Source of the DNA: an uncultured bacterium
GTDB lineage: Bacteria > Bacillota_I > Bacilli_A > RFN20 > CAG-826
Length of the DNA: 64,000 nucleotides
Reading direction: 5' to 3'
Assembly (NCBI GenBank): GCA_949299165.1
Contig: CASFZJ010000004.1
Coordinates: 31,965 to 95,964 of the forward strand
Shown here: piece by piece, positions 12,341 through 60,770 of the stretch
Layout of the letters: each line of letters starts with the position of its first letter
Numbering within the stretch: the stretch's first letter is position 1
Notes under the pieces: model-generated
Databases searched by the model: none
What the model was told of the DNA's origin: nothing
What the model saw: the letters and a program-made list of their open reading frames with translations, nothing else
Program-made: the position numbers and the translations under genes

Positions 12341-12793
12341 ATGTTTTTAGATGAAAAATTCATGAATATCGCGATAAAAGAAGCAAAAATCGCTTATGAA
12401 AAAAACGAGATACCAGTAGGAGCAGTTTTAATTGATAATTTTTCACATAAAATAATTGTTAAAGCACATAATGATAAAGAAAAAAAGAACGATATAACAG
12501 GCCACGCAGAAATTAACGCAATTAGAAAAGCTGAGAAGAAACTAAAAAATCGGCGACTAGAAAATACAACTTTATATGTAACGCTTGAACCTTGTCCAAT
12601 GTGCATGAGCGCTATTTTACAATCCAGAATTTCTAGAGTTGTATTTATGGTTAATGATGAAGAGTTTGGAGCAGCACATAGCAAAATTGACTTAACAAAA
12701 ATATATAAAACAAATACAACAGTTTTTAAAATTGAAGAAAACCCAGAATATATTAAAATTTTCCAGGATTTTTTTAAAAAACACAGGAAATAA
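12341..12793 (+). CDS. tadA: tRNA-specific adenosine deaminase
   Basis: 150 aa. CDA-fold zinc motifs GHAEINAI and TLEPCPMCMSAI. Confidence 0.9.
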   Translation: MFLDEKFMNIAIKEAKIAYEKNEIPVGAVLIDNFSHKIIVKAHNDKEKKNDITGHAEINAIRKAEKKLKNRRLENTTLYVTLEPCPMCMSAILQSRISRVVFMVNDEEFGAAHSKIDLTKIYKTNTTVFKIEENPEYIKIFQDFFKKHRK

Positions 12794-12930
12794 CATCAAT
12801 TTTTCTAAGAAAATTATCGAAAATATTGTCTTTTTTAAATATTCTCTAGAAATAATTAAAAAAATAGAACAATTTATTAATTTTTCTAGAAAAACCACGC
12901 AGAATCTATACAAAAATTAAGAAAAATAAA
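12757..12930 (+). repeat. dispersed ~40-bp repeat family, locus 1 (4 tandem units; first unit lies inside the tadA 3' end)
   Basis: Cores TTCCAGGA 12761, TTCTAAGA 12803, TTCTCTAGA 12843 and TTCTAGA 12884, with a period of 40-42 bp. Each core is followed by A-tracts. The unit at 12826-12866 is about 80% identical to 49705-49745. Confidence 0.7.
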
Positions 12931-12932
12931 TA

Positions 12933-12960
12933 TTTACAATGTAAAAAACCGCTTTATAAT
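12933..12960 (+). promoter_or_regulatory. candidate sigma-A promoter of the fused ABC transporter gene
   Basis: TTTACA (12933-12938), 16-nt spacer, TATAAT (12955-12960), 50 nt upstream of the ATG. Confidence 0.45.
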
Positions 12961-13009
12961 ATATAAAATTTGTATTAAAATTTTTATTGGTTTAAGCAAG
13001 AGGCGCAGG

Positions 13010-15850: not shown

Positions 15851-15851
15851 T

Positions 15852-18853: not shown

Positions 18854-18943
18854 AATATAGCAATAGATTGAAAGTTATTTAAGTCTTAATCGTTTAACTT
18901 CTTAATTATCACACGTTAGCTGGATAGGCTAAGGAGGAAAAAC

Positions 18944-20191
18944 ATGAGAAAAGAAGACTTAATTAGTGATATTCTCTATTTAGCAATGGCAGCCATTGTG
19001 TTGCTTGTAGGTTTTTTAGTTATTCAACCTGCAATTAATAATGGCTTACTCGGAAGAGACATGGGACAAAACGTTCTATTTATTTTGATTGCTCTTGTAA
19101 TAGGAATTATTATAAATGTTGCTTTGATGGAAATTGGGCACTTAATTGGTGCTAAAATTGGCGGATATAAAGTCTTATCTACTAACATTTTAGGTTTTAA
19201 TTTTTATAAAGTTTTTGACAAAAACGCTGCAAAAAGCCAATTAAAATTTAGATTTAAATCATTTAATGGTTTGTCAGGAGAAACAATTATTGAACCAAAG
19301 AAAGATTCTTCCAATCCTTTCTTTTATATTTTTACACCTTTAATTTTGTTCCTTCTTGAATTCGTTGCAATGTATTTTGTTATTAGTCTTGCGCCACAAG
19401 ATAGCGAAACTTATCTAGAAGGAATTCAAATTGTTAAATACGGTTTAATCATTACAACAACAATTGCGGGGTGCATCGTTTTATATGATTATTTCCCTGC
19501 AAAACTAGACACATTAAATGATGGATATAGACTTATTTCTTTATCAAAGAAAATTAATATCGTTGCTTATAATGAAAAATTAAAAATCGAAGCAAACGAA
19601 TATAAAGGAATTAAAAATACCGAATACAAGATTTTTGAAGAAATCACAGACTTTACAGCAAAAGTTAATTTGGAAGCTGCAATAAATGAATTTTTAGATG
19701 AAAAAAGTGAAGAATCTCTTGCTATTATCGAAAAATGTTTAAGTGATCCTACAAAAATTTCCCATAGCACAAAAACTACGCTATTACTCGATAAAATTTA
19801 TATTACATATATTTCGAAAGGTAGCGAAGAAGGCACTAAACTTTTTAAAGAATTAGATCAAGAAACTAATGAATACGTAAAGAAATGCAAGGATTTAGAG
19901 TCAATCAGAGTTTATGCGCTTTATATTGGACTTAACGAAAAGAGTCAAAGTGAAGTTAAATACGCTATAACTAAAGCCAAAAAAGAGTATGAAAGATTAA
20001 CTATTGGCGAAGTAGAAAAAGAGAAGGAATTACTATTAAAAGTAATTTATATGCTCATGGATTTCGATGTTAATTTGATTGATGAGACAATCATAAAATA
20101 TGTATGTGATGCAAATATCGAATCAGAAGATTACAAAAGCGCACTTAAATATTTCATTGATAAAGGCGGAAAAATTTCTGAGAAAAAATAA
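18944..20191 (+). CDS. polytopic membrane protein resembling an M50 (site-2 protease-like) peptidase with a degenerate metal motif, plus C-terminal helical soluble domain
   Basis: 415 aa. TM helix carries ...VALMEIGHLIGAKIGGYKV..., compared with M50 ...HExGHxxxAxxxGxxV. A later TM carries ...YDYFPAKLDTLNDGYRL..., compared with NxxPxxxLDGG. RBS AAGGAGG. Confidence 0.45.
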   Translation: MRKEDLISDILYLAMAAIVLLVGFLVIQPAINNGLLGRDMGQNVLFILIALVIGIIINVALMEIGHLIGAKIGGYKVLSTNILGFNFYKVFDKNAAKSQLKFRFKSFNGLSGETIIEPKKDSSNPFFYIFTPLILFLLEFVAMYFVISLAPQDSETYLEGIQIVKYGLIITTTIAGCIVLYDYFPAKLDTLNDGYRLISLSKKINIVAYNEKLKIEANEYKGIKNTEYKIFEEITDFTAKVNLEAAINEFLDEKSEESLAIIEKCLSDPTKISHSTKTTLLLDKIYITYISKGSEEGTKLFKELDQETNEYVKKCKDLESIRVYALYIGLNEKSQSEVKYAITKAKKEYERLTIGEVEKEKELLLKVIYMLMDFDVNLIDETIIKYVCDANIESEDYKSALKYFIDKGGKISEKK

Positions 20192-20336
20192 AAAAAGCAG
20201 TACTTTTTATAAAAAAGCCTAGGAAAATCGCAAAAAGACATGCTTTATTAAAAATTTCCTAGAAAAAATGTAAAAAAGTATATATTTTTGAAGAATTTCC
20301 TAGAAAAAAGTGGAAAAAGACACATTTTGATAAAAC
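20172..20336 (+). repeat. dispersed ~40-bp repeat family, locus 2 (4 phased tandem units, clearest array)
   Basis: Cores TTTCTGAG 20175, CCTAGG 20218, TTTCCTAG 20255 and TTTCCTAG 20296, with a period of 40-41 bp. Unit pattern is TTTCCTAGAAAAAATG.AAAAAGACA....TTTT..TAAAA. The first unit covers the last codons and stop of the upstream CDS. Confidence 0.8.
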
Positions 20337-20340
20337 AAAA

Positions 20341-20372
20341 ACCCGTACCGTTTTCTCGAGATACGGGTTTTA
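20341..20372. terminator. bidirectional terminator between convergent genes
   Basis: ACCCGTA (20341-20347) pairs with TACGGGT (20362-20368). A-run upstream and T-run downstream. Located between the 18944-20191 (+) gene and mscL (-). Confidence 0.6.
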
Positions 20373-24841: not shown

Positions 24842-25044
24842 TCTTTATTCCCTCCAATTAGATACTATTTTAATATAGGTATAAAAAATAACAACATAAA
24901 TGGATATAAATAAATTTAAGACAATGTAAAAAATGTTTCATTTAACTTGTCAAGTATGATATTATTAGTTGCTAGAAATTTTAGCTAGTTAACATGCTTT
25001 CTTTAAGATCGCATAGAGTCTTAAGGCGGAAGGAGTAGAAAAAG

Positions 25045-25251: not shown

Positions 25252-25262
25252 ATTAATTAAAA

Positions 25263-25288
25263 TCCTTGCAAATTGCAGGGATTTTTTC
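25263..25288 (+). terminator. rho-independent terminator after rpmE
   Basis: TCCTTGCA (25263-25270) pairs with TGCAGGGA (25274-25281), followed by TTTTTT. Confidence 0.75.
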
Positions 25289-25292
25289 TTGT

Positions 25293-25480
25293 TTATTTTT
25301 TGAAAAAAGACAAAAAAGACTATCTTCTAAAACCAAAATATTAAATATTTTTATAATAAATGCACATATATTACTAGAAAAGTTTTCACGAAATGTGCCG
25401 AAGTTTTCACGAAGAAGAAAAAAATGCAAAATTTCCAGGAAATTTATATAAAAAGTGCTAAATTTAATGCTTAAATTTCT
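25293..25480 (+). repeat. dispersed ~40-bp repeat family, locus 4
   Basis: Units include TTTTTGAAAAAAGACAAAAAAGACTATCTTCTAAAA and TACTAGAAAAG... Contains a perfect 17-bp palindrome AAATTTCCAGGAAATTT at 25429-25445. Confidence 0.6.
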
Positions 25481-25519
25481 TATAAAGTTTAAAATATATA
25501 CGAATTGTGGAGAGTATTT

Positions 25520-27112: not shown

Positions 27113-28482
27113 TGGAAATAAAACTCATTGAAAATATTGTTAAGGCTAAAAGAGAATTCTTTTTTAAAGGAAACACTAAAGATTTAAAAACCAGAATAAA
27201 ACGGGTCAAGCAAATTAGAGATAATTTGGTCCTTTATAAAAATGAATTTTACGATGCTTTTAAAGCTGACTTTAATAAATCTTCACTTGAAGTTGCTACT
27301 ACAGAGCTTGGTCAAGTGATCAAAGAGTGTGACTTTTTAATTAAAAAGGGGCGCAGATACTTAAACCCAAAATTTATTAAAACTGGGTTTATTAATCGAA
27401 AATCTTATGGCTTTATTTTTAAAGAACCATATGGAGTGGTTTTGGTTGTTTCCCCACGGAATTATCCGCTTAATTTATCATTAATCCCTGCAATTTCTGC
27501 GTTGTTTTGTGGAAATTGTGTTTTGTTAAAACTATCAAAAAATACTCCAAATATTAATAAAGTTATTGAAAATGTTATTTCTGTAATACCAAAAGAAGTT
27601 TTAAGCACAGTCTATCGTGAAAGAAATGAAGTTGGTTCAATTTTTGATGTTAAATTTGATTATATCTTCTTTACTGGTTCTAAAAATGTTGGAAAAACTG
27701 TAATGGAAAAAGCCAGCAAATATTTGACACCAATTACACTTGAGCTTGGAGGAAAATCTCCAACAATTGTTGATAAAGACGCAAACATAAAAATAGCTGC
27801 TAAAAGAATTGTTTGGGGTAAATTTTTAAATGCAGGACAAACCTGTGTCGCTCCAGATTATGTTTTGGTAGAAAAAAGCATAAGAGATGAATTTATAAAA
27901 CAATGCATTTATTGGATTAATAAATTTTATTTTAAAAAAGGACAAATAAGAAACGAGTTTCCTTTTGTAATTAATGAGGCACAAGCAAATAGATTAAAAG
28001 ATTTTATTGAAGAAGACAAAGTACTAAACAAATATATTTCGTTTGGAAGATTGATTTCGCCAGTACTTTTAGAAGCAAGTTTCGATGATCCTATTATGCA
28101 AGAAGAAATATTTGGCCCAATTCTGCCAATTATTTCGTTTGACTCTTTAAATTCTGTGATTAGAAATTTACAAGAAAACGATAAACCTTTAGCTTTATAT
28201 TATTTTGGAGAAGACTTTAAAAGGACTAATAAAGTGTTATCAAGTTTAAGTTTTGGTGGTGGATGTGTAAATAACACCATTATGCACTTTACTGTAGATG
28301 AATTTCCTTTTGGTGGAGTTCAAGCAAGCGGACTAGGACAATATCATGGTAAATATTCTATTGACGCTTTCACACATCAAAAGAGCGTTTTGTTCCAATC
28401 TCGACGAGAATTAAAAGTTAAATTTCCGCCTTATACTGGGTTTAAAAGAATATTAGTTGAATTTTTCCTAAGGATTTTTTGA
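27112..28482 (+). CDS. NAD(P)-dependent aldehyde dehydrogenase (ALDH3-like)
   Basis: 456 aa. Contains ELGGKSP, catalytic-Cys region GQTCVAPDY and EEIFGPILPI. Its start overlaps the metG stop by 1 nt. Confidence 0.9.
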   Translation: MEIKLIENIVKAKREFFFKGNTKDLKTRIKRVKQIRDNLVLYKNEFYDAFKADFNKSSLEVATTELGQVIKECDFLIKKGRRYLNPKFIKTGFINRKSYGFIFKEPYGVVLVVSPRNYPLNLSLIPAISALFCGNCVLLKLSKNTPNINKVIENVISVIPKEVLSTVYRERNEVGSIFDVKFDYIFFTGSKNVGKTVMEKASKYLTPITLELGGKSPTIVDKDANIKIAAKRIVWGKFLNAGQTCVAPDYVLVEKSIRDEFIKQCIYWINKFYFKKGQIRNEFPFVINEAQANRLKDFIEEDKVLNKYISFGRLISPVLLEASFDDPIMQEEIFGPILPIISFDSLNSVIRNLQENDKPLALYYFGEDFKRTNKVLSSLSFGGGCVNNTIMHFTVDEFPFGGVQASGLGQYHGKYSIDAFTHQKSVLFQSRRELKVKFPPYTGFKRILVEFFLRIF

Positions 28483-28560
28483 TTTTTTCCTTAAGCGTGA
28501 AAATATCCGCATTTATTTTCACAGAAAAATATTCTTTTTTCGACTTGAAAATAAACTTAA
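28462..28560 (+). repeat. dispersed repeat family, locus 5 (begins inside the ALDH 3' end)
   Basis: TTTTTCCTAAGGATTTTTT (covers the last codons EFFLRIF and the stop), then TTTTTTCCTTAAGCGTGAAAATATCC and TTCACAGAAAAATATTC. Confidence 0.5.
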
Positions 28561-35910: not shown

Positions 35911-38492
35911 TGAAAAAAACTTTTATAAAGTATATTTTTTCATCTATTAAAAACGATTTATCTCGTTTGATTGCAATTTTTGTAATTGTTGTTTTGGGAT
36001 TGGGATTTTTAATAGGTTTATCAAGCAGTTCACCTGATTTACAAGCAACCATGAATAATTATTGGAATCAATCCAACTTCATGGATGTTTATATTCAATC
36101 AACGATAGGATTTTCTGATTCAGATGTTGAATCTTTAAAAAATGAATTGAGTGGCGTTAGTGACATTGATGGCTATTATCAAATGGACCAACGGACATAC
36201 ATTAACGATAAAAAAAGCGAAACAAGATTAATCTATAGATCTTTTGGTGATAACGACATTGATAAACTTACTCTTGTTGAAGGAAAATTTCCTGAAAATG
36301 CTAACGAAGTATTGCTTTTAGACAATTCGTCGGAATCTGTTAGCCATGAATTAGGAACACAGATAAGATTTAATAATACCGATGGTACCGAAGAAGTTTA
36401 TGTTGTTTCAGGTTTAGTTAAAGATCCTTTTTACGTTTCAAGAACTGGAGACGTAACTACTATTGGTAGCGGAGTATTGGATGCGGTTGTTTATTTTGAT
36501 AAGTCTTTTTATGAACCAAAAGAAACCACAATTATTAAAATTAGATATAGCGGAGCAAGAAGGTATAACGCTTTCTCTGAGGATTACGATAAATATATAA
36601 ATAATAAAATTTCAGAAATAAATGAGATTAGCGCGCCTTTTATTGAAAATAGGGTACTCGAGATTAAAGAATTAATCAAAGAAGAAGCAAAACAACAAAT
36701 TATTGATTACTTCGAACAAAGTATTCAAGATAGCCAATTCAGTGAAGAAATTAAACAAGGATTGTTGCAAGCATTAGAACAATTTTTAGATACTCAAGAA
36801 TTTGATGTTTTAGTTTCACAACAGGTTGATCAAATCTTTAATGAACAATTTGGAGATGTAGATATGGTTTGGTATGTCTTATCTCGTGATCAAAACCAAA
36901 GCGCTTATATGTTTGAAATCGATTCGACTAAAGTTGACACAATCAGTGCTGTTTTCCCTGTATTTTTCTTCGTCATTGCATTACTTGTTTCGGTAACTAG
37001 TATTACAAGAATTATTAGTAAAGATCGTCCACAAATGGGTACTTTAAAATCTTTGGGTTATAGTAAAGGAATGATTTATACAAAGTATTTAGTCTATGGA
37101 CTTTTAACTACGATTTTGGGTTCTATTGTTGCAGTTGTTTTTGGCTTATTTGTACTCCCTACAATAATTGGAAGCGTTTATGGCACAATTTATGATTTGA
37201 TTGTACCAATGGTCTATGTTGGCGACCCAGCAATGATTGCAATTTATACCCTATCGATGATTGCTTTAATTTTAATAATTATTACACTCATTTCATTCGC
37301 CTCGTTGAGAGACAACGTCTCATCATTAATGATAGGTAAAGCTCCAATTCCTGGTAAAAAAATATGGCTTGAACATCTACCATTTATTTGGAAACACCTT
37401 AAATTTAATACAAAATCGATGTTGAGAAACGTTTTTAGATTTAAGAAAAATTTAATTATGATGCTTATTGGAATCGGCGGCTGTACTGGTTTACTTTTAA
37501 CAGCTTTTGGATTGAAAGATTCTTTAAGTGTTATTAATACAACACAGTTTACGGACATCATTAAATATGATTTTGTTGCGAAGTTAACTACCGAAGGAAT
37601 GGAAGGAGAAAATCCTTTCGATATTGGTGAAAGCAATAAAGTTTATAGTTATGATGGAACCGCCTTGGGAAGCAATGAAAATATAGATTTTACTCTTATT
37701 TCAACAAACAATTTACTAGAATATGTTGGACTCGATGATTCTGATTCTTTTGATGAAAACAGCTTTATTATAACTAAACAAATTGCAGATAAATTCGGCC
37801 TAAGTATTGGCGATAACATTGTAATTTCTCTTAATGATTTAAATAATTCATTAACTCAAATTGAAGTAACAGGCATAACTGAAAACTACATTGAAAACTA
37901 TGTTTATTGTGGTGAAAAAGTTGTGCAAACTTATTTCCCAACACTTGTACAAAATGGATACATTGTTAAAACTGACCTAAACGATCAAGAAGTTAATGAA
38001 TACATCGACAGACTTTTGGAAAACCCAAATATTATTAGTGTTGTTAATAGTCAGAACACTAAATTAATGTACGAAAGCGTTTTGAATAACTTAGATTCAA
38101 TAGTTGCTATTGTTGTTCTTTTAAGTGGTGCTTTGATTGCGGTTGTTATTTATAACCTGACTGATATTATGGTTTCAGAACGTATAAAAGAAATTGCGAC
38201 ACTTCGTGTTAATGGATATTATCGTTATGAATCTTTACTTTATATATTTAGAGAAATATTCTTTATGTCGGTAATTGGTGTTGCAATCGGCATTGGTGTT
38301 GGTGTTCTTTTACATAGATATATTATGGTTGGAATAGAATCGATTGGATTAACTTTTGGAATGTGGATTGCTTGGCCAAGTTATATTTATACCATATTAT
38401 TAGCGTTTGGATTTGTAGCTCTCGTTTGTATTTTGTTCTTCCCAAAAATTAATAAAATTAAAATGGCTGAAGCTTTAAAATCTGTAGAATAA
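35910..38492 (+). CDS. ABC transporter permease, duplicated FtsX-domain type
   Basis: About 860 aa with two FtsX modules (...MGTLKSLGYSKG... and ...KEIATLRVNGY...), each preceded by a large extracytoplasmic domain. The ATG overlaps the ATPase stop. Confidence 0.85.
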   Translation: MKKTFIKYIFSSIKNDLSRLIAIFVIVVLGLGFLIGLSSSSPDLQATMNNYWNQSNFMDVYIQSTIGFSDSDVESLKNELSGVSDIDGYYQMDQRTYINDKKSETRLIYRSFGDNDIDKLTLVEGKFPENANEVLLLDNSSESVSHELGTQIRFNNTDGTEEVYVVSGLVKDPFYVSRTGDVTTIGSGVLDAVVYFDKSFYEPKETTIIKIRYSGARRYNAFSEDYDKYINNKISEINEISAPFIENRVLEIKELIKEEAKQQIIDYFEQSIQDSQFSEEIKQGLLQALEQFLDTQEFDVLVSQQVDQIFNEQFGDVDMVWYVLSRDQNQSAYMFEIDSTKVDTISAVFPVFFFVIALLVSVTSITRIISKDRPQMGTLKSLGYSKGMIYTKYLVYGLLTTILGSIVAVVFGLFVLPTIIGSVYGTIYDLIVPMVYVGDPAMIAIYTLSMIALILIIITLISFASLRDNVSSLMIGKAPIPGKKIWLEHLPFIWKHLKFNTKSMLRNVFRFKKNLIMMLIGIGGCTGLLLTAFGLKDSLSVINTTQFTDIIKYDFVAKLTTEGMEGENPFDIGESNKVYSYDGTALGSNENIDFTLISTNNLLEYVGLDDSDSFDENSFIITKQIADKFGLSIGDNIVISLNDLNNSLTQIEVTGITENYIENYVYCGEKVVQTYFPTLVQNGYIVKTDLNDQEVNEYIDRLLENPNIISVVNSQNTKLMYESVLNNLDSIVAIVVLLSGALIAVVIYNLTDIMVSERIKEIATLRVNGYYRYESLLYIFREIFFMSVIGVAIGIGVGVLLHRYIMVGIESIGLTFGMWIAWPSYIYTILLAFGFVALVCILFFPKINKIKMAEALKSVE

Positions 38493-38500
38493 TTCAATTT

Positions 38501-38610
38501 TTGCGGGATTTTTTTAAAAAAATCCCATATTTTTTGCAAAAAGACTATGAATTTTAAAAATATATTGGAAAAATTAAAAAAACGCTATAAATTTTAATAA
38601 AATGCTCTTT
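38501..38610 (+). repeat. dispersed repeat family, locus 6 (with AT-rich palindromic hairpin)
   Basis: GGGATTTTTTTAAAAAAATCCC palindrome, then TTTTTGCAAAAAGACTATGAATTTTAAAAA (matches the GCAAAAAGACA..TTT..TAAAA tail at 20230-20254), then ATTGGAAAAATTAAAAAAACGC... Confidence 0.5.
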
Positions 38611-42041: not shown

Positions 42042-43286
42042 ATGGCAAACGTTGAAAAGAAAGAAAAAAAGCCATTTAAAGGCGTAAAAATATGGGATTT
42101 TTTAAATAAAATCCCTGCTGGAACTATGTTTGTTCCACTTGTAATTAGTGCAATTATTACTACAATTTGTATTCATTGTGGTCTAGGAGTTTCTTTGTGG
42201 GAATATTTAGGAAACCCTATGAAAGATTTGTTCGGATCAACAGGACAAATGCTTCTTATTGGTTTAATGTTATTTTGCACAGGGACCACAATTACTGGAA
42301 GAGATTTTATAGAAGTTGGAAAAAGAGGAATTTGGATTATATTAGCCAGACTTATTCCTGCTTATGTAATTTGCGCAATTGTGTTTGTTTGTTGCGGAGT
42401 TAATGGTTTTGCTGGAATTGATTCAATTACACTTGTTTGCTGTTTAACTTCAGCAAATGCTGCACTATATATGGGTATTATTCAACCATATGGTGACGAT
42501 TCCGATAAGGGAACATTTCCAATTATGCTTATTTTCTCAATGCCATTAGTTCCTTTTATTTTCTTGAGTTGCATGGGTAGTGGAAATAGTGATATCACAA
42601 CAAGTATTTTACAAATTATCTCACTTTTGATTCCTTTCCTTCTCGGTGTTTTACTTGGTAATTTGGATCACAAGATTAGAAATGTATTCAAAGGCGGAAA
42701 TGCAATAATTCTTCCTTTCTTGGGTTTCCAATTTGGTTCTACAATTGATCTAGTTAATGCATTTCAAGGTGAAGTTATTCTTGCAGCTTTATTATTAACT
42801 GTGATTTATTGGGCAGTTACAATGATTCTTCCTTATCTTGTAGATAGATTTATTCTTAAAAGACCAGGCTATGCATCGGTCGCTTCTTGTTCCCTAGCTG
42901 GAGTTGCATTATCTATTCCAGCAATGGTTGCTACTTATACATTTAACGGCGTAAGTGGTGCAGAAGCTGCAAAAAATGCAACAGCAATTCTTGCCTTTGT
43001 TCTCTTTATTACTAACATTCTTGCTCCATTTTTCACTAAATGGACTATGAATGCTTATTTTAAACACAACCACGATGATGCTGTTAGGGTTTTTGAAAGA
43101 TCACACCCAGAACTTTTGAATGCGGTATATGATGAAAACGGAAATTATCGTACACATCATCACAATCACGATTTTTACAAAAAGATTTTTCATATAAAAT
43201 CACATAAAAACCCTGCAAATCCTGAACAAAATAATGAAAATTTAAATGCTCAATCAAATAACGACGAAAGTAATGCAGATAAATAA
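42042..43286 (+). CDS. KdgT-family (2-keto-3-deoxygluconate permease-like) transporter with His-rich C-terminal tail
   Basis: 414 aa. ...KIPAGTMFVPLVISAII... N-terminus and ...LGNLDHKIRNVFKGGNAIILPFLGFQFG... match the KdgT pattern. Tail ...YRTHHHNHDFYKKIFHIKSHKN... Confidence 0.65.
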   Translation: MANVEKKEKKPFKGVKIWDFLNKIPAGTMFVPLVISAIITTICIHCGLGVSLWEYLGNPMKDLFGSTGQMLLIGLMLFCTGTTITGRDFIEVGKRGIWIILARLIPAYVICAIVFVCCGVNGFAGIDSITLVCCLTSANAALYMGIIQPYGDDSDKGTFPIMLIFSMPLVPFIFLSCMGSGNSDITTSILQIISLLIPFLLGVLLGNLDHKIRNVFKGGNAIILPFLGFQFGSTIDLVNAFQGEVILAALLLTVIYWAVTMILPYLVDRFILKRPGYASVASCSLAGVALSIPAMVATYTFNGVSGAEAAKNATAILAFVLFITNILAPFFTKWTMNAYFKHNHDDAVRVFERSHPELLNAVYDENGNYRTHHHNHDFYKKIFHIKSHKNPANPEQNNENLNAQSNNDESNADK

Positions 43287-44100: not shown

Positions 44101-44160
44101 CTAAATATTTCCAGAGATTTTATAATTTACATTCTGAATAAAATTAATAAAATAAGATAC

Positions 44161-48595: not shown

Positions 48596-49528
48596 CTAGT
48601 TCCTGATCTTTTTTGGTAGTGGATTTAATGAATCTTCAGTATTTGTGGTTAGTTTAAAAATATAAATTTCAATTAAAAAGACCATAATTATAAAAATTAG
48701 CATATATGCAAAATTTGGAGTTTTTAAGCTACCATAAATAAAAGGAGTCATCAAAAATATCATATATTGATAAAAAACATGGAAAATATTTAAAAAAGTA
48801 TACGTTTTCTGAATATTTATGGATTTTTTATAAATAATTATAGGAAAAGGAATAAAAATTAGAAAAATTATAAGCGGCGAAACAAATACAGTAATTAGAA
48901 ATTCTTCATTTCCTTGAGCATATATATGCGCAAATAGAGTAGACATAAGCGAAGCGGCCATAACTCCGGCGCAATAAGAAATCACATAAATAAGCAATAA
49001 TTCGGCTTCCTTATTTATGTAATATTTTTTATTAAAATATGAGTTTTTAATTTTTTCAGGTTTTTCAGTGTTGTCTGCAAAGGAAAATTTTATTAAATTT
49101 TCATAATAGGATTTTAACTTTTTGTCAACATGGTAATAATAAATGCCACAATATATTGCTGTTATTAGCATCAGAGAAACAAATAAAATAGTTAAAATTA
49201 AATTCTTATAGAACTCTCCGAAAAAGAATACATGTGTATAAATAAATAAAGTGTTTATTAAGAGAATACAAAACGCAAATGATAAAATTTCGTTTCCTTT
49301 TAACTTGGTAATTAACAGTGGTTTAAAGTTAATTGCTTCATAATAAATAAAATAAATTGAGAAAGCGGCACCAATTAATATAAATATTACATATACAGCG
49401 AAAAAATAATCTCTAAAATAGTAAAATCCTGTTAAATAAAAAACGGACGCAACAACAAATATCCGTGCAAAAGTACGTATGTAATCCGTAACAAATAAAT
49501 TTCTTTCTTTTTTACTAAATGGTTTCAT
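48596..49528 (-). CDS. hypothetical polytopic membrane protein
   Basis: 310 aa with about 8 hydrophobic segments and no recognisable motif. Confidence 0.4.
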   Translation of the reverse strand: MKPFSKKERNLFVTDYIRTFARIFVVASVFYLTGFYYFRDYFFAVYVIFILIGAAFSIYFIYYEAINFKPLLITKLKGNEILSFAFCILLINTLFIYTHVFFFGEFYKNLILTILFVSLMLITAIYCGIYYYHVDKKLKSYYENLIKFSFADNTEKPEKIKNSYFNKKYYINKEAELLLIYVISYCAGVMAASLMSTLFAHIYAQGNEEFLITVFVSPLIIFLIFIPFPIIIYKKSINIQKTYTFLNIFHVFYQYMIFLMTPFIYGSLKTPNFAYMLIFIIMVFLIEIYIFKLTTNTEDSLNPLPKKIRN

Positions 49529-49609
49529 CTTTATTTTTATTTTAAATTTATATTTGCGCTTTGTGAAATTGAGTTTTGTCGGATTAATAAAAATTTAATA
49601 AAAGTATAA

Positions 49610-49790
49610 AGATGAAAAAGTTCTATAAAAATTACTAGAAAAAGGAATTTTTACTAAATTTTTAAAGTTTTTTATCAAATTTTCAGAAAAAACGATTATA
49701 AATATAGTCTTTTTTAAATATTTGCTAGAAAAAATATAAAAAATACCGGAAAAAATTAAAAATTATGACTTTTTAAAAAGTTGAAATCTT
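49610..49790 (+). repeat. dispersed ~40-bp repeat family, locus 8
   Basis: Cores TACTAGAA 49633, TTTCAGAA 49681 (AAATTTTCAGAAAAAA) and TGCTAGAA 49723. The unit at 49705-49745 is about 80% identical to 12826-12866. Confidence 0.65.
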
Positions 49791-49821: not shown

Positions 49822-49850
49822 TTGTAAGCGCTTTCAAAGTAAATTAAAAT
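49822..49850 (+). promoter_or_regulatory. candidate hydrogenase-operon promoter with embedded cre (CcpA) site
   Basis: TTGTAA (49822-49827), 17-nt spacer, TAAAAT (49845-49850). TGTAAGCGCTTTCA (49823-49836) fits the cre consensus TGWAANCGNTNWCA at every position. Confidence 0.55.
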
Positions 49851-54097: not shown

Positions 54098-54240
54098 ATA
54101 GAAAAAAATAAAAATTCCCTTGGAAAATGAAGAAATTCCTGGGAATTTTTAATATTTACGGAAAAGCTTTTGGCAAAAAATACTTTTTAGAGAACGATTT
54201 AATATCAAAGTTTTCAAAAATAATGAAAATACAAAACATT
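54098..54240 (+). repeat. dispersed repeat family, locus 9
   Basis: AAAATTCCCTTGGAAAAT and the palindrome AAATTCC-TG-GGAATTT (54133-54148), followed by A-tract units. Confidence 0.5.
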
Positions 54241-54355
54241 CTCTGTTGAAAAAAATGTAGCAATCTTGAAAACCTTTGAAAGTGTCGGGGAGGGGATAAT
54301 AACTCTCACCAAAATATAATTTTGTTGGATTACAGTAAGAAAAATTACCTAGCAT
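54149..54355 (-). pseudogene. probable remnant of an iron-containing alcohol dehydrogenase gene (only the first ~17 codons recognisable)
   Basis: Retains RBS GGAGG and an ATG. The N-terminus MLGNFSYCNPTKLYFGE matches the Fe-ADH start pattern (M.NF.Y.NPTKI.FG.G). The rest is unrelated and low-complexity, and overlaps the repeat family. Confidence 0.35.
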
Positions 54356-54489
54356 TTTTAATAGTTAGCCTCCGCGTAATTTAGTAATTCTTGACACTAT
54401 GTCAGCATTTAAAATTTATAACTTATTTGACATCGTCTCAATAGTTATGGAAAATTGTCAGTTATTTTTGCTGAGGTACAAAAAGATAT

Positions 54490-54971
54490 ATTTTAAGAAA
54501 TTTATTGCTACACATGATAATTATCGTGGCAATAATTGCGGCAATAAATGTAGCAACTGTTTCTATTGGTAGTTTCGTAACGGTTATGGAAATACTTTCT
54601 AAGATTTTTATTTGGATTGGCTTAGGTTTAGCTATTTTTGCACATCAATTGCGTATAAGAAAAAAGAAATTGGAATTTTAAGAGCAGTAGGCGCTAAAGC
54701 TTCTGATGTATTTAAAATCTTTTTCTCAGAAGCTTTTGTTATAGCAATTATTAATTTGGTACTTGCGTGTATTGGAGCAATAATTAGTATTTATTTTGTT
54801 AACGATGCGTTCATATCGAGTCTGGGCACAATAGGAGCATTCTATTTCTTTAGTTTTAGACAATTTGGAATTATGCTTGCTCTTTCAATAGGAGTAGCTG
54901 CTTTAGCAACATTCTTACCAGTTTATTTCTTATCAAGAAAGAAACCTGTTGATTCAATAAATAATAGGTAA
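54490..54971 (+). pseudogene. truncated, frameshifted FtsX-type ABC permease remnant
   Basis: One frame gives ...SFVTVMEILSKIFIWIGLGLAIFA; the next frame gives ...TSIAYKKKEIGILRAVGAKASDVFKIFFSEAF... plus 3 TM and ...LSRKKPVDSINNR. Together these equal only the last module of a protein like 13010-15850. The frame changes near the T-run at about 54640. No ATPase or N-terminal part is present. Confidence 0.55.
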
Positions 54972-54984: not shown

Positions 54985-55140
54985 TGATGAAAATTTTAGG
55001 AAAATTTTAAAAAAATTCGCTACATTTTTCAAAAATTCCAGAAAAAGTTAATTTTTTCTAAAATAGTTAAGATTTGCAAGGTTTTTGACAAAATTTCCTG
55101 GAAAAAACAACTTTTTCTAATGTTCAATATTTTAGTAAAA
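54985..55140 (+). repeat. dispersed ~40-bp repeat family, locus 10
   Basis: Cores TTTTAGGAAAA 54995, TTCCAGAAAAA 55037 and TTTCCTGGAAAAAA 55094 (TTTCCTGGAAA is a perfect palindrome). Confidence 0.6.
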
Positions 55141-55278: not shown

Positions 55279-55412
55279 AAGATTTGTGCTTAAATATACT
55301 ATCAAAGGCGCAACAAATTATCAAGTTTGAGTTGAAGTTCGATGAAAAAACTTTGTGTAGTGTCAAATATTAAAAATGTATTTTTTAATAAATCGGCCTA
55401 TAATAATAGAGT

Positions 55413-57199: not shown

Positions 57200-57202
57200 A
57201 AA

Positions 57203-57229
57203 AACTCCGCGATTTGCAGAGTTTTTTTT
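57203..57229. terminator. bidirectional terminator (SDR / MFS convergent)
   Basis: AACTCCGC pairs with GCAGAGTT. A-run before and T8 after. Confidence 0.65.
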
Positions 57230-57254
57230 ATAATTGTTATGTCTTTTTAAAATT

Positions 57255-58652
57255 TTAATTTTCTTCAAATGTTTCAGAAGTAATGTTTAATTCTTTATCT
57301 ATTACACTGTTTTCTTCATCGATGAAATGTTGACTCTTTTTGTTAACAATAACAGCGAAGATAAAGACGATACCACCAACAAAGACTAATACTGCAAGAG
57401 GAATAATACCTAAATTTGATGAGTCGGTTGCTTGAGAGATGATACCAAAGAGAAACGTTCCAATAAAACTTGCGCCCTTTCCAAATGCATCAAATAAAGA
57501 GAAGAGTTCACCAGATTTATTCTTAGGAATGATTTGAGTGAAGTAACTTCTTGAAAGAGCTTGGATTCCGCCTTGGAACATACCAACAGCAACGGCTAAA
57601 ATCCAGAACATCCAGTTATTGTTAATAAAGATTGCAAAAATCGTGATGAATAAATAACCAAGAATTCCAACAAATATCATTTTTTCTGTGCCACATTTTT
57701 TTGCAAGATAAGACATTCCGATAGCACAAGGACAAGCGATAACTTGAACAGCAACAAGTGCGATTAATGAGTCAATTTGACCAACGCCAAATCCTCCAGC
57801 GACTTTAATTGCTAGTTCAATAATTGAATAAACGCCATCTATATATAAGAAGAAAGCGATTAAGAAAAGAATAATTCCAGCGTGTTTTCTAGCATATTTG
57901 AAGATTTCCCAAATTCTTTTATATGAATCACTAACAGCTTTAAACATTGATTTTGCTTTGCTTCCTTGGGCTACATCTCTTTCAACGAAATAATTTTGCT
58001 TATAGGTTTTAAATAGAGGAACAGTGAAAGCTAACCACCATAAGCCATTAATAGCAAAACAGATTAAATATCCCCATGGACAAGCAAGAGAAGCATCCAT
58101 TCCTGTTAATAATTGGCCATCAGCACCATATGCTTCATATCCAGTAAAACCAAAAGCACAAATTGCGATTCCAATTAAGAATGGCACCAAACTACCAATA
58201 TAACCAAACGCATAACCATATGCAGAGACTTTATTTGTTCTTTCAATACTAGTTGTATCAACAAGCATTGAGTCATAAATCATAAGTGCGCCATTGTAGC
58301 AAACTTTACAAATAACAAATAAGATTAACCAACCAACGAAATTCATTGGGACGCCAAGTAAAATACATCCAATTACTGCTAGCAATGTGAAGATTAAGAA
58401 CATTGGCTTTTTAAAGTTTTTGTAATCGCTTAATGTTCCAATTAATGGTCCAATTAAAACGGCGATTAAGGTAACAATACTTGCAGCATAAGACCAAAAA
58501 GCATCTGAATCAGTTGAACTTATTCCCGCAAGGTTTGTTAAATTCGTAAAAAACAACGCAAAAAGAGAAACTGAAACCATTGTGAAGGCACTATTTCCAA
58601 CATCATAAAGGATCCAACATAACTCTTTTTTGGTTAACTTCTTCTTTTTCAT
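57255..58652 (-). CDS. MFS transporter, UMF1 (Atg22-like) family
   Basis: 465 aa. ...KKELCWILYDVGNSAFTMVSVSLFALFF... start typical of UMF1, with about 12 TM. Confidence 0.75.
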   Translation of the reverse strand: MKKKKLTKKELCWILYDVGNSAFTMVSVSLFALFFTNLTNLAGISSTDSDAFWSYAASIVTLIAVLIGPLIGTLSDYKNFKKPMFLIFTLLAVIGCILLGVPMNFVGWLILFVICKVCYNGALMIYDSMLVDTTSIERTNKVSAYGYAFGYIGSLVPFLIGIAICAFGFTGYEAYGADGQLLTGMDASLACPWGYLICFAINGLWWLAFTVPLFKTYKQNYFVERDVAQGSKAKSMFKAVSDSYKRIWEIFKYARKHAGIILFLIAFFLYIDGVYSIIELAIKVAGGFGVGQIDSLIALVAVQVIACPCAIGMSYLAKKCGTEKMIFVGILGYLFITIFAIFINNNWMFWILAVAVGMFQGGIQALSRSYFTQIIPKNKSGELFSLFDAFGKGASFIGTFLFGIISQATDSSNLGIIPLAVLVFVGGIVFIFAVIVNKKSQHFIDEENSVIDKELNITSETFEEN

Positions 58653-58756
58653 AAATTTTTAACCTAAATCCTTCCTTTGTTTACGTAAAAATTTTAATGA
58701 TATAATCTTTAAGATTCAATAAATTGTGAGAAATTAAGGGAAATATTTACTTTTTC

Positions 58757-58926
58757 TTTACATTGGAGTTTAGGATGAATTTGAAAACTCACTTGTTTTT
58801 GATCTAAACTTTTAGTCCAAAAGTCGATTGCATTTTGGTCAAGATTTACACAAAACTCCCTTTCACTTTGGTCAAAAAATGAATAAAACCCCCTTGCATT
58901 TTGGTCCAAAGGGCAACTTTATAAAA
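58757..58926 (+). repeat. degenerate tandem array A, about 5 units of ~33-36 bp (TTGCATTTTGGTCAA...AAAAC.CCC)
   Basis: Units at about 58757, 58793, 58829, 58861 and 58894. The best three are TTGCATTTTGGTCAAGATTTACACAAAACTCCC, TTTCACTTTGGTCAAAAAATGAATAAAACCCCC and TTGCATTTTGGTCCAAAGGGCAAC... Confidence 0.65.
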
Positions 58927-58946
58927 AACTATATAATAAAAAACTC

Positions 58947-59062
58947 CAAAAACGTGCAATTAATTCAAATAAAATCTTGCAAAAACGTGCAATTAATTCA
59001 AATAAAATCTCGTAAAAACGTGCAATTAATTCAAATAAAATCTTGTAAAAACGTGTAATAAA
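58947..59062 (+). repeat. tandem array B, 3.5 near-identical units of 33 bp
   Basis: CAAAAACGTGCAATTAATTCAAATAAAATCTTG at 58947-58979, 58980-59012 (1 mismatch) and 59013-59045 (1 mismatch), plus a partial unit to about 59062. Ends 17 nt before the AAA ATPase ATG. Confidence 0.9.
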
Positions 59063-59078
59063 TACTATCTTATTAGAT

Positions 59079-60464
59079 ATGAAAAGAAAATATTTGGAAA
59101 AACTCGTGGAATGGAAAAATAAACCTGATAGGAAACCGCTTATGGTATGGGGAGCAAGGCAAGTTGGCAAAACTTTTTTAATTGAGGTATTATTTGCTAA
59201 AGAATATTATCCAAATTCATATTTAAAAATAGATTGTTCAAATGATGAAGATTTTGTTAATTATGTCACAGAACATAATCAGCTAGATAAAGTACTTTTA
59301 TATATAGAATTAAACTATAATTTTAAACCTGATAAAAATCATTTATTGTTTATTGATGAAGTGCAAGAATGTTTGCCAATAGTTAAAATGATGAAACATT
59401 TTAACGAGATTAGACGTGATATTCCTTTAATTGTTTCTGGATCGCTTGTAAGATTAAAGATATTTAGATCTGCTCATAAACGTGGTGTAAGAACTGATAA
59501 AAAGAAATTTCTTTTTCCAGTAGGAAAAATTAATGAATTATATATTTATCCGCTTACTTTTGATGAATTTTTAATTAATTATAAGCCAAATATATATGAA
59601 TATTTAAAAGATTGCTATACGAATAATAAGTCGATTGACGCTGGATTTCATTCTAAATTTTTAGAAATTTTTAAAGAATATTTATTTATTGGAGGCATGC
59701 CGGAAGCAGTTGATTTTTTCATAAAAAATGTAGAAAAAGATAGAGCATTTGCTTTTAAGAATGTGGTTTTAATTATTAAAGAAATTTATAACAATTATTT
59801 AGCAGACATGGACTTATATCAAGTATCACCAGAAGCTATAATTAGAAGTCGTTTAATTTATAAAGATATATATAAACAACTGAACAAGGAAAATAAAAAT
59901 TTTAAATTTTCTCTAACAGAAAAAAATGCACGTGGAAGAGATATGTTAAATCCGATAGGATGGTTAGTTGAAGCGAAAATTGTGAATCAATCTTTTGAAC
60001 TTAAAGAAAAGATAACAACACCATTAACAGAAAATAATGATTCATTGATGCGCCTTTACTTAGCTGATATGGGGATGTTCACTTATCAAAGTGGCTTAAA
60101 TGCAAGGATGTTTACTTTGAATTCAGAAAATTCACTGTCTGGAATTTACTATGAAAATTATATGGCTTGTGAACTTGTTGCAAGAGATATAAAACTTTTT
60201 TATTGGCGCGGGAAAAGAGATAGCGAGTTTGAGTTTATACTTGATTTAGATGGAAGAGTAATCCCTATTGATGTCAAAAAAGGTAAATCGAGACTTAACT
60301 CACTAGATGAATTTAGAAATCACAATAAAAAATGGTTAGCAATTAAAATTTCTTCTAATCAATACGGCTATAATAACGAAAAAGAGATTCTTACAATTCC
60401 GTTTTATTTTGTACCGTTCTTTTTAGATGATTTGGAAAATGGCTTAGTTAGAATCTATAAATAG
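59079..60464 (+). CDS. AAA-family ATPase with C-terminal DUF4143 (PD-(D/E)xK-like) domain
   Basis: 461 aa. Walker A GARQVGKT and Walker B LLFIDEVQ. C-terminal ...RGKRDSEFEFILDLDGRVIPIDVKKGKS... fits the E/D...E.K nuclease-fold signature of DUF4143. Confidence 0.75.
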   Translation: MKRKYLEKLVEWKNKPDRKPLMVWGARQVGKTFLIEVLFAKEYYPNSYLKIDCSNDEDFVNYVTEHNQLDKVLLYIELNYNFKPDKNHLLFIDEVQECLPIVKMMKHFNEIRRDIPLIVSGSLVRLKIFRSAHKRGVRTDKKKFLFPVGKINELYIYPLTFDEFLINYKPNIYEYLKDCYTNNKSIDAGFHSKFLEIFKEYLFIGGMPEAVDFFIKNVEKDRAFAFKNVVLIIKEIYNNYLADMDLYQVSPEAIIRSRLIYKDIYKQLNKENKNFKFSLTEKNARGRDMLNPIGWLVEAKIVNQSFELKEKITTPLTENNDSLMRLYLADMGMFTYQSGLNARMFTLNSENSLSGIYYENYMACELVARDIKLFYWRGKRDSEFEFILDLDGRVIPIDVKKGKSRLNSLDEFRNHNKKWLAIKISSNQYGYNNEKEILTIPFYFVPFFLDDLENGLVRIYK

Positions 60465-60634
60465 AAAATACTCTTTTTGCAACTTACCAATTGATAATTC
60501 AAAACAATTTTAGGTTTATACTTACTTTATTCAACAAGACATATTTGTTTGTTCGTTTACTAAATCGAAATCAACAGATCCATCAAGAAAAACACACAGC
60601 ATGTCTTACTGAAAGTTTATAATTAGTGTGAATT

Positions 60635-60770
60635 TGTATAAAAGTCCAGGAAATATTATCGATAACTTCAAAAATTTGCATAAAAACTCCGAGCAAATTG
60701 TTAAAAACCCTAGGAAAAAATGCAAAAAGTCGAAAAAAAGCGTATTTAGAAAATTTACATTTTTTAAATT
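60635..60770 (+). repeat. dispersed ~40-bp repeat family, locus 11
   Basis: AAAGTCCAGGAAATATT..., then CCCTAGGAAAAAATGCAAAAAGTCGAAAAAAAGCG..., nearly identical in pattern to 20216-20240 and 20255-20280. Confidence 0.65.

Follow-up and report, generated by a model that had tools for sequence, protein, structure and literature searches.

Phased A-tracts and short dispersed repeats in bacteria

Phased A-tracts cause intrinsic bending of DNA, and bent DNA has been reported to be in excess in the intergenic regions of prokaryotes, promoter and terminator segments included (PMC3940949; PMC4060949). Clusters of such tracts in prokaryotic intergenic regions have been described by Bolshoy and co-workers, Tolstorukov et al. 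and Mrazek (summarised in PMC4060949, PMC3940949). A link between bent intergenic DNA and DNA-bridging nucleoid proteins has been proposed (PMC3940949; PMC4060949), and what A-tract periodicity does physiologically in bacteria is still said to be unclear (PMC3940949). The arrays described here, found in intergenic gaps of a 64-kb stretch of DNA (henceforth the window), are like these clusters in their A/T runs ~10–11 bp apart over ~100–170 bp, in their strong predicted curvature, and in their position beside promoters and terminators, with the cooperation of nucleoid proteins proposed in both cases. Unlike generic phased A-tracts, the predicted bend comes from a recognisable ~41-bp unit with a CTAG dyad, arranged in tandem and copied to several gaps, and two sister species have this unit, whereas close relatives whose composition is identical lack it. 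The restricted repeat family is a species-group-specific variant of phased A-tract bent DNA, an already known kind of feature.

Enterobacterial REP/BIME elements interact with the architectural proteins IHF and gyrase; the REPs, which are GC-rich and fold into stable hairpins, carry a conserved GTAG foot and need a RAYT transposase. The arrays resemble them as short dyad-symmetric intergenic repeats in clusters of alternating orientation, with a preference for gene 3' ends and convergent gaps and a species-group-specific distribution, but their units, with about 80% A+T, fold into no significant hairpins, and no RAYT gene was found among the genes of the window and its flanks. Pneumococcal BOX elements, in which tandem 45-bp boxB modules are flanked by boxA and boxC, form stable RNA structures. 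They share with the arrays a dispersed, non-coding, intergenic module of ~41–45 bp in 1–4 repeats; the arrays have neither boxA/boxC-type flanks nor a stable RNA fold. The sopC site of F is a single locus of twelve near-identical 43-bp repeats, each with a palindromic SopB site, served by a cognate ParB-type protein. A period of about four helical turns and a short palindrome per unit recur here; unlike sopC, the arrays are several degenerate chromosomal loci of variable core geometry, without similarity in plasmid or phage collections.

A small family of 41-bp units

The host is an AT-rich uncultured Mollicutes-like bacterium, of whose genome the 64-kb window and ~10 kb of flanks were examined. 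An earlier note had described at least ten homologous arrays of ~40-bp units, all in one orientation. The sequences that it quoted were found where it had placed them, and a repeat family does exist, though it has fewer members than that note described, is looser, and is less uniform in direction. The features of the three arrays are as follows.

12795–12900, no strand assigned: three units with cores at 12803, 12843 and 12884, defined by alignment to the 49.7k and 20.2k arrays
20169–20335, no strand assigned: clean tandem array of four ~41-bp units, found by TRF
20339–20368, no strand assigned: strong hairpin followed by a T-run (AAAAACCCGTACC...GATACGGGTTTT), from RNA folding
49625–49790, no strand assigned: array of 3–4 units, defined by homology and as the most curved segment of the window

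The proposed period of 40–42 bp was recovered at 20.2k, where TRF gave a period of 40–41, 3.8–4.2 copies, 66–70% matches and a score of 107–120. The cores of this array, at 20175, 20218, 20255 and 20296, are TTTCTGAG, GCCTAGG, TTTCCTAG and again TTTCCTAG, with an A-run after each. It is bounded by the stop codon of a 415-aa ORF (20191) and by a terminator; the gap is convergent, with mscL on the other side, and holds no promoter-like site. Its first unit overlaps the coding end KISEKK-stop, and it is identical across 7 strains. The hairpin at 20339–20368 is, as judged from its predicted fold, the terminator common to both convergent genes, and belongs to the context, outside the repeat.

At 12.8k the cores listed at 12803, 12843 and 12884 stand, and the further unit read at 12757–12793 is the conserved deaminase C-terminus. 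This array sits between the deaminase stop and a strong ABC-transporter promoter, predicted just downstream (TTTACA-16-TATAAT, 12933–12960); among strains there are 5 SNPs in 215 nt, one of them inside a core. The homology noted between 12826–12866 and 49705–49745 proved to be part of a longer match, of 12795–12866 to 49674–49745 (79% over 72 nt). The 49.7k array is closely flanked by strong divergent predicted promoters, at 49567–49539 (minus strand) for a 310-aa ORF and at 49822–49850 (plus strand) for the hydrogenase operon.

Pairwise local alignments of the intergenic regions scored 34.5, 25 and 25 against a dinucleotide-shuffle maximum of 24, and under a stricter null that keeps the 10.25-bp phase the family-wise 95th percentile was 18.0. 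Only the pairs 12.8k–49.7k, 12.8k–20.2k and 20.2k–49.7k exceeded these nulls, with 20.2k–38.5k borderline at 18.5. Homology is therefore demonstrable for 3–4 loci and not for ten. Identity between units is 65–79%, the copies being old and degenerate. The unit is dyad-symmetric, with two dyads, and is both a direct and an inverted repeat. The best alignment of 12.8k to 20.2k is reversed (25 vs 18.5 forward; GTCTTTTTT is the reverse complement of AAAAAGAC), and the claim of a single orientation without any reversed array fails here as well as at 28462–28500, whose cores (TTTTTCCTAAGGATTTTTT, TTTTTTCCTTAAG) lie on the minus strand together with that at 44.1k.

A loose core motif, C[TC][AT]?[AG]G[AG]AAA, is confined to intergenic DNA, where it occurs 17 times on the plus and 7 times on the minus strand (2.2 and 1.6 expected), or 8 and 2 times without the three arrays (1.7 and 1.3 expected). 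CCWGG is enriched in intergenic DNA as well. CTAG, noted earlier as generally rare in bacterial genomes, shows no special depletion here: the window has 109, where a maximal-order Markov model gives 93.

The remaining loci

The other listed loci are weaker curved A-tract clusters, terminators and coding ends, which look like the unit because of their composition and symmetry; those that are not such other features have no more than a short T-run/C-Y-W-G/A-run core in common with it.

25293–25480, plus strand: AT-rich filler between the rpmE terminator and metG, with AAAAAGAC twice and one palindrome, AAATTTCCAGGAAATTT
28462–28500, minus strand: two reversed core-like motifs, their A-run on that strand, which overlap the stop of the aldehyde dehydrogenase gene
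38530–38600, plus strand: a single stretch resembling the unit, TTGCAAAAAGACTATGAATTTTAAAAATATATTGGAAAAATTAAAAAAACG, which follows a terminator and lies upstream of degV; homology borderline
54108–54150, plus strand: terminator-type hairpin after the hydrogenase gene, from RNA folding
54985–55140, plus strand: curved segment with three core-like motifs, TTTTAGGAAAA, TTCCAGAAAAA and TTTCCTGGAAAAAA
60640–60780, plus strand: curved segment with two core-like motifs, of which 60703–60729 resembles unit 2 of the 20.2k array

The likeness to 20216–20240, in the 20.2k array, that had been seen at 60.7k and 38.5k held in part. At 60.7k it reaches an nhmmer E of 0.05 and an alignment score of 14.5 (nominal P 0.017), in a segment of curvature 0.67 (P 0.005); at 38.5k the alignment, to 20230–20288, scores 18.5 (vs 18.0 for the null), with a curvature peak at 38476–38595, and the core read at 38505–38526 is a terminator hairpin. 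Unit-level homology was not demonstrable at 55.0k, where alignments to the arrays are only nominally significant (P 0.007–0.013); this segment has a curvature of 0.74 (P 0.01). The 25.3k locus is moderately curved (0.67, P 0.025) and does not align significantly to the arrays; relatives hold a 164–166-aa gene at this position, and no trace of that gene, as a pseudogene remnant would leave, was found. The supposed cores at 54.1k, TTCCCTTGGAA and TTCCTGGGAA, are the two arms of the terminator hairpin, a block that is conserved in the sister-species sequence L122. The motifs at 28.46k are not curved (0.95, P 0.66), 44101–44125 is a single core, reversed, on the minus strand, and 24911–24997 is the rpmE promoter/L31-leader region. 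An insertion of the repeat into recF was rejected after testing.

Such results bear on the strongest competing explanation, by which the listed loci are mostly heterogeneous AT-rich intergenic sequence and the three arrays a duplicated or recombined degenerate minisatellite, with neither function nor selection. We regard it as possible but unlikely. In its favour, a profile of the clean units found nothing significant outside 20.2k (best 60705–60732, E 0.05, and 55090–55108, E 0.11), nhmmer profiles from 4 or 8 units holding too little information in 80% A+T sequence; a noisy Smith-Waterman scan with the consensus rated A-rich coding DNA as high as most loci; several units turned out to be terminators or coding sequence; and core-like strings within recF and the deaminase gene are normal codons. 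The enrichment of the plus-strand loose core even without the three arrays (8 vs 1.7) argues against it, as do the curvature and the cross-species comparisons presented below. For annotation, the loci are a warning that, in genomes of 30% GC, what looks like a repeat unit is in many cases a terminator arm or codons.

Helical phasing and predicted curvature

The unifying property of the loci is the helical phasing of their A/T tracts. In a periodogram, A/T-tract periodicity at 10–10.25 bp exceeded all of 100 shuffles at 12.8k, 20.2k, 49.7k and 55.0k, and peaks at 10.5–11 bp were seen for 54.1k and 60.7k. With A/T runs one helical turn apart, the DNA is predicted to be strongly bent. A wedge model gave end-to-end/contour ratios of 0.39 for 20.2k, 0.21 for 49.7k (whole segment) and 0.77 for 12.8k, whose curvature peak lies at 12736–12855, compared with 0.89–0.94 for shuffles; 49.7k is the most curved segment, with the lowest 120-bp value in the 64 kb, 0.367. 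The curvature is a prediction, with which the model-free periodogram agrees; control sequences behaved correctly (phased A6 tracts 0.45, 15-bp-spaced tracts 0.99).

In an unbiased scan of the 64 kb, 14 of the 120-bp windows fell below 0.70 (median 0.95); eight of these were listed loci, and intergenic DNA makes up only ~10% of the sequence. That eight loci are curvature outliers speaks against chance likeness of composition, and the suggestion that the arrays are intrinsically curved DNA is the one of the originally proposed roles that these computations favour, through the phasing, the extreme predicted curvature and its retention across species.

Distribution and divergence among relatives

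Arrays and curvature peaks occur in the same gaps in a sister species (L118, L120, L122, L127) that differs by ~35–37% at 4-fold sites: L118 has the 20.2k array, as four diverged units, and the alleles L120, L122 and L127 have array-type sequence at the 49.7k position. The deeper relatives L116, L119 and L129 have no arrays in the syntenic 21 kb; a deeper relative represented in the PPDK cluster is likewise without arrays. L116, L119 and L129 match the window in GC (0.30) and in A5/T5 tract density, yet have no such curvature peaks, which is difficult to reconcile with composition alone. Since these relatives manage without arrays at the same promoters, any function of the arrays is dispensable. 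A deep conservation of the 49.7k array, suggested by the 310-aa protein beside it being only 60–71% identical in L120 and L122, was dropped, as other genes place both in the sister species. The 49.7k gap is hypervariable within that species, and structural variation also touches the arrays as an insertion inside the L118 array and a recombinant junction in L110.

Between the sister species the array sequence drifts almost neutrally while phasing and curvature are retained. Identity of the 20.2k array is 0.69, against a 4-fold divergence of 0.37, and cores are no better conserved than spacers (about 23% vs 15–46% changed). This near-neutral divergence, like the absence from deeper relatives, is what a functionless minisatellite would give. 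The retention of phasing is not: real orthologues keep a curvature of 0.30–0.50, and simulated neutral substitution, with a uniform or an empirical 4-fold matrix and sites assumed independent, gives 0.80–0.87 (P at most 0.004). Homogenisation is not the cause, because orthologous units are only slightly more alike (0.74) than paralogous ones (0.68). Context-dependent mutation, such as slippage regenerating homopolymer runs, could preserve the tracts without selection.

The distribution provides a natural pair, two sister species with discrete, alignable curved arrays and close relatives of equal composition without them, and hence matched promoters and terminators with and without an array; the signal of drifting sequence and constant shape is open to direct test.

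A dispersed repeat that may build bent intergenic DNA

The explanation that we favour, at roughly even odds (probability about 0.5), is that a dispersed non-coding repeat, specific to this lineage, gives rise to intrinsically bent DNA in gaps between genes, near promoters and terminators. The ~41-bp unit spans four helical turns with two dyad centres about 20.5 bp apart, one in the T-run/C-CTAG/A-run core and one in the A-run/N5–7/T-run spacer, and short tandem arrays of it put A- and T-tracts one helical turn apart, which would bend the intergenic DNA. The arrays may have originated by tandem duplication in steps that preserved the helical phase and may have spread between intergenic gaps through copying by recombination. 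Their persistence could reflect a benefit of the bend as such, which would serve the adjacent promoters at 12.8k and 49.7k as an architectural element placed upstream or, alternatively, offer nucleoid-associated proteins a preferred landing site by promoters and terminators; recognition of a specific base sequence would not be required. An upstream-of-promoter role cannot be general, since the cleanest array, that at 20.2k, lies in a promoterless convergent gap.

More specifically, once it has brought bent DNA into intergenic gaps, the repeat might be kept in the clade because selection acts on its helical phasing, a matter of DNA shape, and not on its sequence; it would then be a shape-encoded architectural element, a proposal that we hold tentatively and consider improbable at present. 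Under this proposal the arrays would influence the promoters and terminators next to them, and they might have evolved together with a nucleoid-associated or bridging protein that this lineage acquired.

Binding sites, mobile elements and polar motifs

It is distinctly unlikely that the arrays serve a sequence-specific dimeric regulator or a ParB/Noc-like protein binding a TTTCC-TA-GGAAA-type core every four turns on one helix face. The palindromic core does recur at 41-bp or ~20-bp spacing, both core and CCWGG are concentrated in intergenic DNA, and the window is origin-proximal; centromere-like sites cluster near the origin in Firmicutes. The CodY box is AATTTTCWGAAAATT, the Noc-binding site is ATTTCCCGGGAAAT, and dif consists of two 11-bp arms around a 6-bp centre (28 bp). 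The core shares TTTC...GAAA or TTCCTAGAA with all of these, here with an intra-core spacing that is not fixed. The likeness of the array core to B. subtilis dif, whose left arm is ACTTCCTAGAA, stops at the 9-mer TTCCTAGAA (PMC3025954). Among cores, TTTC and GAAAA lie 1 to 4 nt apart, a range that one dimer geometry could not accommodate, and cores change as fast as spacers between the sister species, so that a specific palindromic operator is not borne out. Neither known box is enriched: at up to 3 mismatches, CodY sites (AATTTTCWGAAAATT) gave 38 matches vs 38.1 expected and Noc/ParB-type sites (ATTTCCNNGGAAAT), which are perfect dyads of 14–16 bp with a fixed spacing, 82 vs 69.9, a count equalled or exceeded in 7 of 100 shuffles. 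There was no match to a dif/Xer site (left arm, N6, right arm) at up to 3 mismatches, and no ParB/Noc gene in the oriC-proximal gene set.

Less probable again is a REP/BIME-like or enzyme-mobilised element, in which alternating ~20-bp half-units were spread by a transposase or recombinase encoded elsewhere. A unit that is direct and inverted repeat at once, a position at gene 3' ends and in convergent gaps, restriction to a narrow clade and the coincidence with structural variation (L118, L110 and the 49.7k gap) would all suit it. As the earlier note had recognised, however, the arrays are not classical MITE, REP or BOX elements. The stable hairpin of a REP/BIME is missing (folding z −1.15 at 12.8k and 49.7k; the z of −4.5 at 20.2k includes the adjacent terminator), and CTAG at the dyad centre stands in place of a conserved GTAG-type foot. 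For BOX, outside the unit the sequences beside the three arrays have nothing in common, boxA and boxC being absent; for a MITE, no terminal inverted repeats or target duplications appeared in a repeat search or in the comparison of filled (window, L118) with empty (L116, L119, L129) sites. The Pfam-scanned genes of the window and flanks include no transposase, of the Y1 type or other, and no recombinase, and the copies, at 65–79% identity between units, are degenerate and old.

It is very improbable that the arrays are a polar motif oriented with replication or segregation, or a transcribed RNA element of 3' UTRs. The loose core favours the plus (leading) strand, 17 to 7, but nearly all neighbouring genes are on that strand, co-oriented with replication, so transcription and replication are confounded; the sole left-replichore sequence of the species (L001:1-8823) holds no arrays with which orientation could be compared. 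Known polar motifs of the KOPS/SRS/Chi type are short words spread over coding as well as non-coding DNA, and their orientation flips across oriC; the array core is restricted to intergenic gaps, cores are reversed at 28.46k and 44.1k, and the three homologous arrays differ in orientation. An RNA element would fit 20.2k, which is probably transcribed because it lies between a stop codon and a terminator, and whose fold, that terminator included, has a z of −4.5; at the other two arrays RNA structure is not significant, 49.7k lies between divergent promoters, outside any 3' UTR, and covariance models of Rfam 15 matched none of the arrays, at gathering score or at E up to 1.

Occurrence in other collections

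A GTDB scan for two cores 33–45 bp apart, which is not a census of the array family, returned at least 100 loci with one hit each, spread over all phyla; these were chance matches or tandem repeats of an unrelated kind, and the source genome was not among the matches listed. Close homologues of the proteins of the window come only from ENA/Logan.

Genomic setting

The sequence analysed covers 64 kb next to the replication origin of an uncultured bacterium of 30% GC, with the gene order rnpA/rpmH, dnaA (1178–2539), dnaN, recF, gyrB, gyrA and an ordinary chromosomal gene content. It is 100% identical to scaffold_1 of ENA assembly ERZ16268249, and homologues of its proteins carry the source names 'Mollicutes bacterium', 'Erysipelotrichaceae bacterium' and 'Candidatus Onthovivens sp.'. 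Rfam matches in the window were the SRP RNA and tRNA-Ser only. Cumulative GC skew climbs across the whole window, making the plus strand the leading strand.

A small family of homologous loci

An earlier note had described tandem arrays of an A-tract unit of about 40 bp, with a TTCC(W)GGAA core, in at least ten intergenic regions. The strings it quoted are present where it placed them, and Tandem Repeats Finder recognised a sole clean tandem array, at 20169–20335 (period 40–41, about four copies, 66–70% matches). We aligned all pairs of intergenic regions on both strands against dinucleotide shuffles, of which 20 sets gave a maximum score of 24. The arrays 12.8k and 49.7k (named, like other loci, by position in kb) aligned with a score of 34.5 (72 nt, 79% identical), and 20.2k scored 25 with each of them. 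Because the loci all proved to have phased A-tracts, we also applied a stricter null in which bases were shuffled only inside the same helical phase. All three pairs were still significant, 20.2k–38.5k was borderline (score 18.5; family-wise 95th percentile, 18.0), and the remaining intergenic pairs were unremarkable. A profile HMM built from the clean units found nothing significant elsewhere. Intergenic enrichment of a loose core, C-Y-(W)-R-G-R-AAA following a T-run, persisted when the three arrays were removed (plus strand 8 vs 1.7 expected, minus strand 2 vs 1.3). Alignments, profile and core counts together therefore define a genuine family whose homologous loci number three or perhaps four, with a wider halo of look-alike cores around it. 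The family originally listed is thus partly confirmed.

Arrays, cores and listed loci of another nature
12757–12793: not a repeat unit but the C-terminus of a deaminase gene (IFQDFFKKHRK); relatives have LLEEFFKNKRSEN at the corresponding place, hence conserved coding sequence
12795–12900: array 12.8k
20169–20335: array 20.2k; its first unit overlaps KISEKK-stop
24911–24997: rejected as an array; rpmE promoter region, beside an L31-leader-like match
25259–25285: intrinsic terminator
28462–28500: two reversed cores, A-runs on the minus strand, read from the sequence
38505–38526: rejected as a repeat unit; intrinsic terminator
44101–44125, minus strand: one core only
49625–49790: array 49.7k
54.1k: two 'cores' rejected as units; arms of a single terminator-type hairpin, retained in the sister species

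The L31-Firmicutes ribosomal-protein-leader-like match (25001–25035, upstream of rpmE) scored 27.4 bits (E 0.13; gathering score 33.3). Deeper relatives carry a 164–166-aa gene between rpmE and metG (L116:16418–16912, L119:17464–17964); 25252–25504 of the window held AT-rich filler only, with no detectable remnant of it. An inverted copy (30 nt, 93%) of the terminator hairpin 38505–38534 lies at 42086–42115, just within the predicted start of a KdgT-like ORF (42042–43286), whose true start may be further downstream.

Orientation of the unit

The unit combines direct and inverted repetition: the CTAG core carries one dyad and the spacer (A-run, 5–7 nt, T-run) a second. The 12.8k and 20.2k arrays align better in reverse (25 vs 18.5 forward), GTCTTTTTT at 12.8k and 49.7k is replaced by AAAAAGAC at the corresponding place in 20.2k, 38.5k and 60.7k, and at 28462–28500 the A-runs of both cores are minus-strand. 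It is therefore incorrect that all arrays share a single orientation. The loose core is nonetheless plus-strand biased. As neighbouring genes are nearly all on the plus strand, replication and transcription are inseparable in the window.

Helical phasing and predicted curvature

Helically phased A/T tracts are the evident and unifying property of the family. The A/T-run periodogram peaks at 10–10.25 bp, above 100/100 shuffles at 12.8k, 20.2k, 49.7k and 55.0k. In a wedge model, the ratio of end-to-end distance to contour length is 0.39 for 20.2k and 0.21 for 49.7k (shuffles about 0.90), a predicted curvature as extreme as that of an idealised phased-A6 control (0.45); a 15-bp-spaced control was straight (0.99). 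We also scanned the whole window in 120-bp windows, blind to the listed loci (median 0.95). Fourteen fell below 0.70, eight of them at listed loci (12.8k, 20.2k, 25.4k, 38.5k, 49.7k, 54.1k, 55.0k and 60.7k) and the rest all in coding DNA. Phased tracts and strong predicted curvature thus lend computational support to 'intrinsically curved DNA', one of the roles first proposed. A 41-bp unit makes four helical turns, so that phase is kept on tandem duplication.

Strong curvature is also predicted within the recF coding region (4646–4765, 0.47). RecF aligns to solved structures without insertion, also where core-like strings occur, so the phased A-tracts there come from K/E/I/F-rich codons; the core-like strings are likewise ordinary codons (KIPEIFQK).

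Comparison with strains and relatives

Among strains 98–99.6% identical we saw no copy-number change. The sister species (L118, L120, L122, L127), whose neighbouring proteins are 94–99% identical and 4-fold sites about 35–37% diverged, has arrays in the same gaps. Deeper relatives (L116, L119, L129; ABC transporter 75–78% identical) have a terminator alone after the 415-aa gene, and the sequence ahead of their ABC transporter is unrelated. Their syntenic 21 kb is free of curvature peaks throughout, and they match the window in GC content and A5/T5 tract density. The arrays are therefore derived in one small clade, and the repeat family is real but modest and specific to that clade.

The main rival to a structural role is neutral minisatellite decay. 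The 20.2k gap is 69% identical between the two species, about the neutral expectation; cores are as changeable as spacers, and the slight gap between orthologous (0.74) and paralogous (0.68) units shows that there is no homogenisation. Both species retain strong phasing and predicted curvature (0.30–0.50). When one species' array was evolved in simulation by the observed divergence, uniformly or with a 4-fold-site substitution matrix, curvature decayed to 0.80–0.87 and at most 0.4% of simulations matched the real orthologue; its phasing was reached by none in most comparisons and by up to 2.8% for window-to-L120. Predicted shape is thus kept while sequence drifts. A structural role is argued for chiefly on this ground, with the main caveat that homopolymer runs might be regenerated by context-dependent mutation. 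The most likely reading, to which we give about an even chance, is that the arrays act as intrinsically bent architectural DNA.

The 90-nt gap 18854–18943, which separates a TetR-like gene from the gene for the 415-aa membrane protein, keeps 98% identity between the sister species, against a 37% difference at 4-fold sites, and would be a strongly constrained leader or operator. A 310-aa ORF (48596–49528, minus strand) has no Pfam domain and is hypervariable: its identity is 99, 71, 61 and 60% across genomes in which the genes next to it reach 94–99%. About 2 kb round it, array gap included, differs between contigs L120 and L122 of the same sister species. At L118:3540–3940 an insertion that carries a minus-strand ORF of 62 aa interrupts the tadA–ABC array. 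The sequence of strain contig L110 (L110:1–369) becomes L116-type directly upstream of the ABC gene, reflecting either recombination or an assembly chimera.

Neighbouring promoters and terminators

An 11/12 promoter match (12933–12960) begins about 35 bp downstream of the 12.8k end, and 49.7k occupies the gap between two divergent promoter matches. The predicted promoter of the [FeFe]-hydrogenase operon has its -35 overlapped by a cre-like site, TTGTAAGCGCTTTCAA (49822–49837), invariant in all sister-species alleles; the adjoining array region is hypervariable. The 20.2k array, in a convergent gap, has a stop codon on one side and a strong terminator on the other, and no promoter match was found there. 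These positions fit published surveys, which report an excess of bent DNA in prokaryotic intergenic regions, in promoter and terminator segments alike, and propose that such DNA works together with nucleoid proteins (PMC4060949, PMC3940949).

In the sister species a different gene, with an SLFN_AlbA_2 domain, follows the hydrogenase operon. In the window, a 119-aa ORF encoding an FtsX C-terminal fragment (54612–54971) comes after about 460 nt of non-coding DNA, the whole (54149–54971) apparently a decayed ABC permease.

Known families and other repeats

CodY boxes (38 matches vs 38 expected) and a Noc-like dyad (82 vs 70) were rejected, as was dif, since the match to the B. subtilis site (PMC3025954) is limited to TTCCTAGAA and a two-arm site was not found. 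The arrays lack the stable hairpins of REP and the flanking modules, terminal repeats and target duplications of BOX and MITE, which supports the first judgement that they are none of these classical elements. They had no match in Rfam or in plasmid and phage collections. The family is a variant among known kinds, namely A-tract clusters and the small repeats dispersed in intergenic DNA, and no new category.

A clean 33-bp tandem repeat at 58947–59063 (3.5 copies, 94% matches, TRF score 199; consensus CAAAAACGTGCAATTAATTCAAATAAAATCTTG), directly upstream of an AAA_14/DUF4143 ATPase gene (59079–60464), bears no relation to the A-tract family, and its internal conservation is much higher. Among the matches listed in a genome-collection scan were perfect tandem repeats of about 40–50 bp with TTCCTAGAAAAA, also unrelated to the family, in Methanobrevibacter, Bacteroidota, Anaerolineales and a cyanobacterium, and, in Bacteroidales MAGs, runs of CTAGAA-type 11-mers preceding genes (repeat and 11-mer loci L011, L089, L020, L023, L072, L015, L076, L094, L097 and L104).
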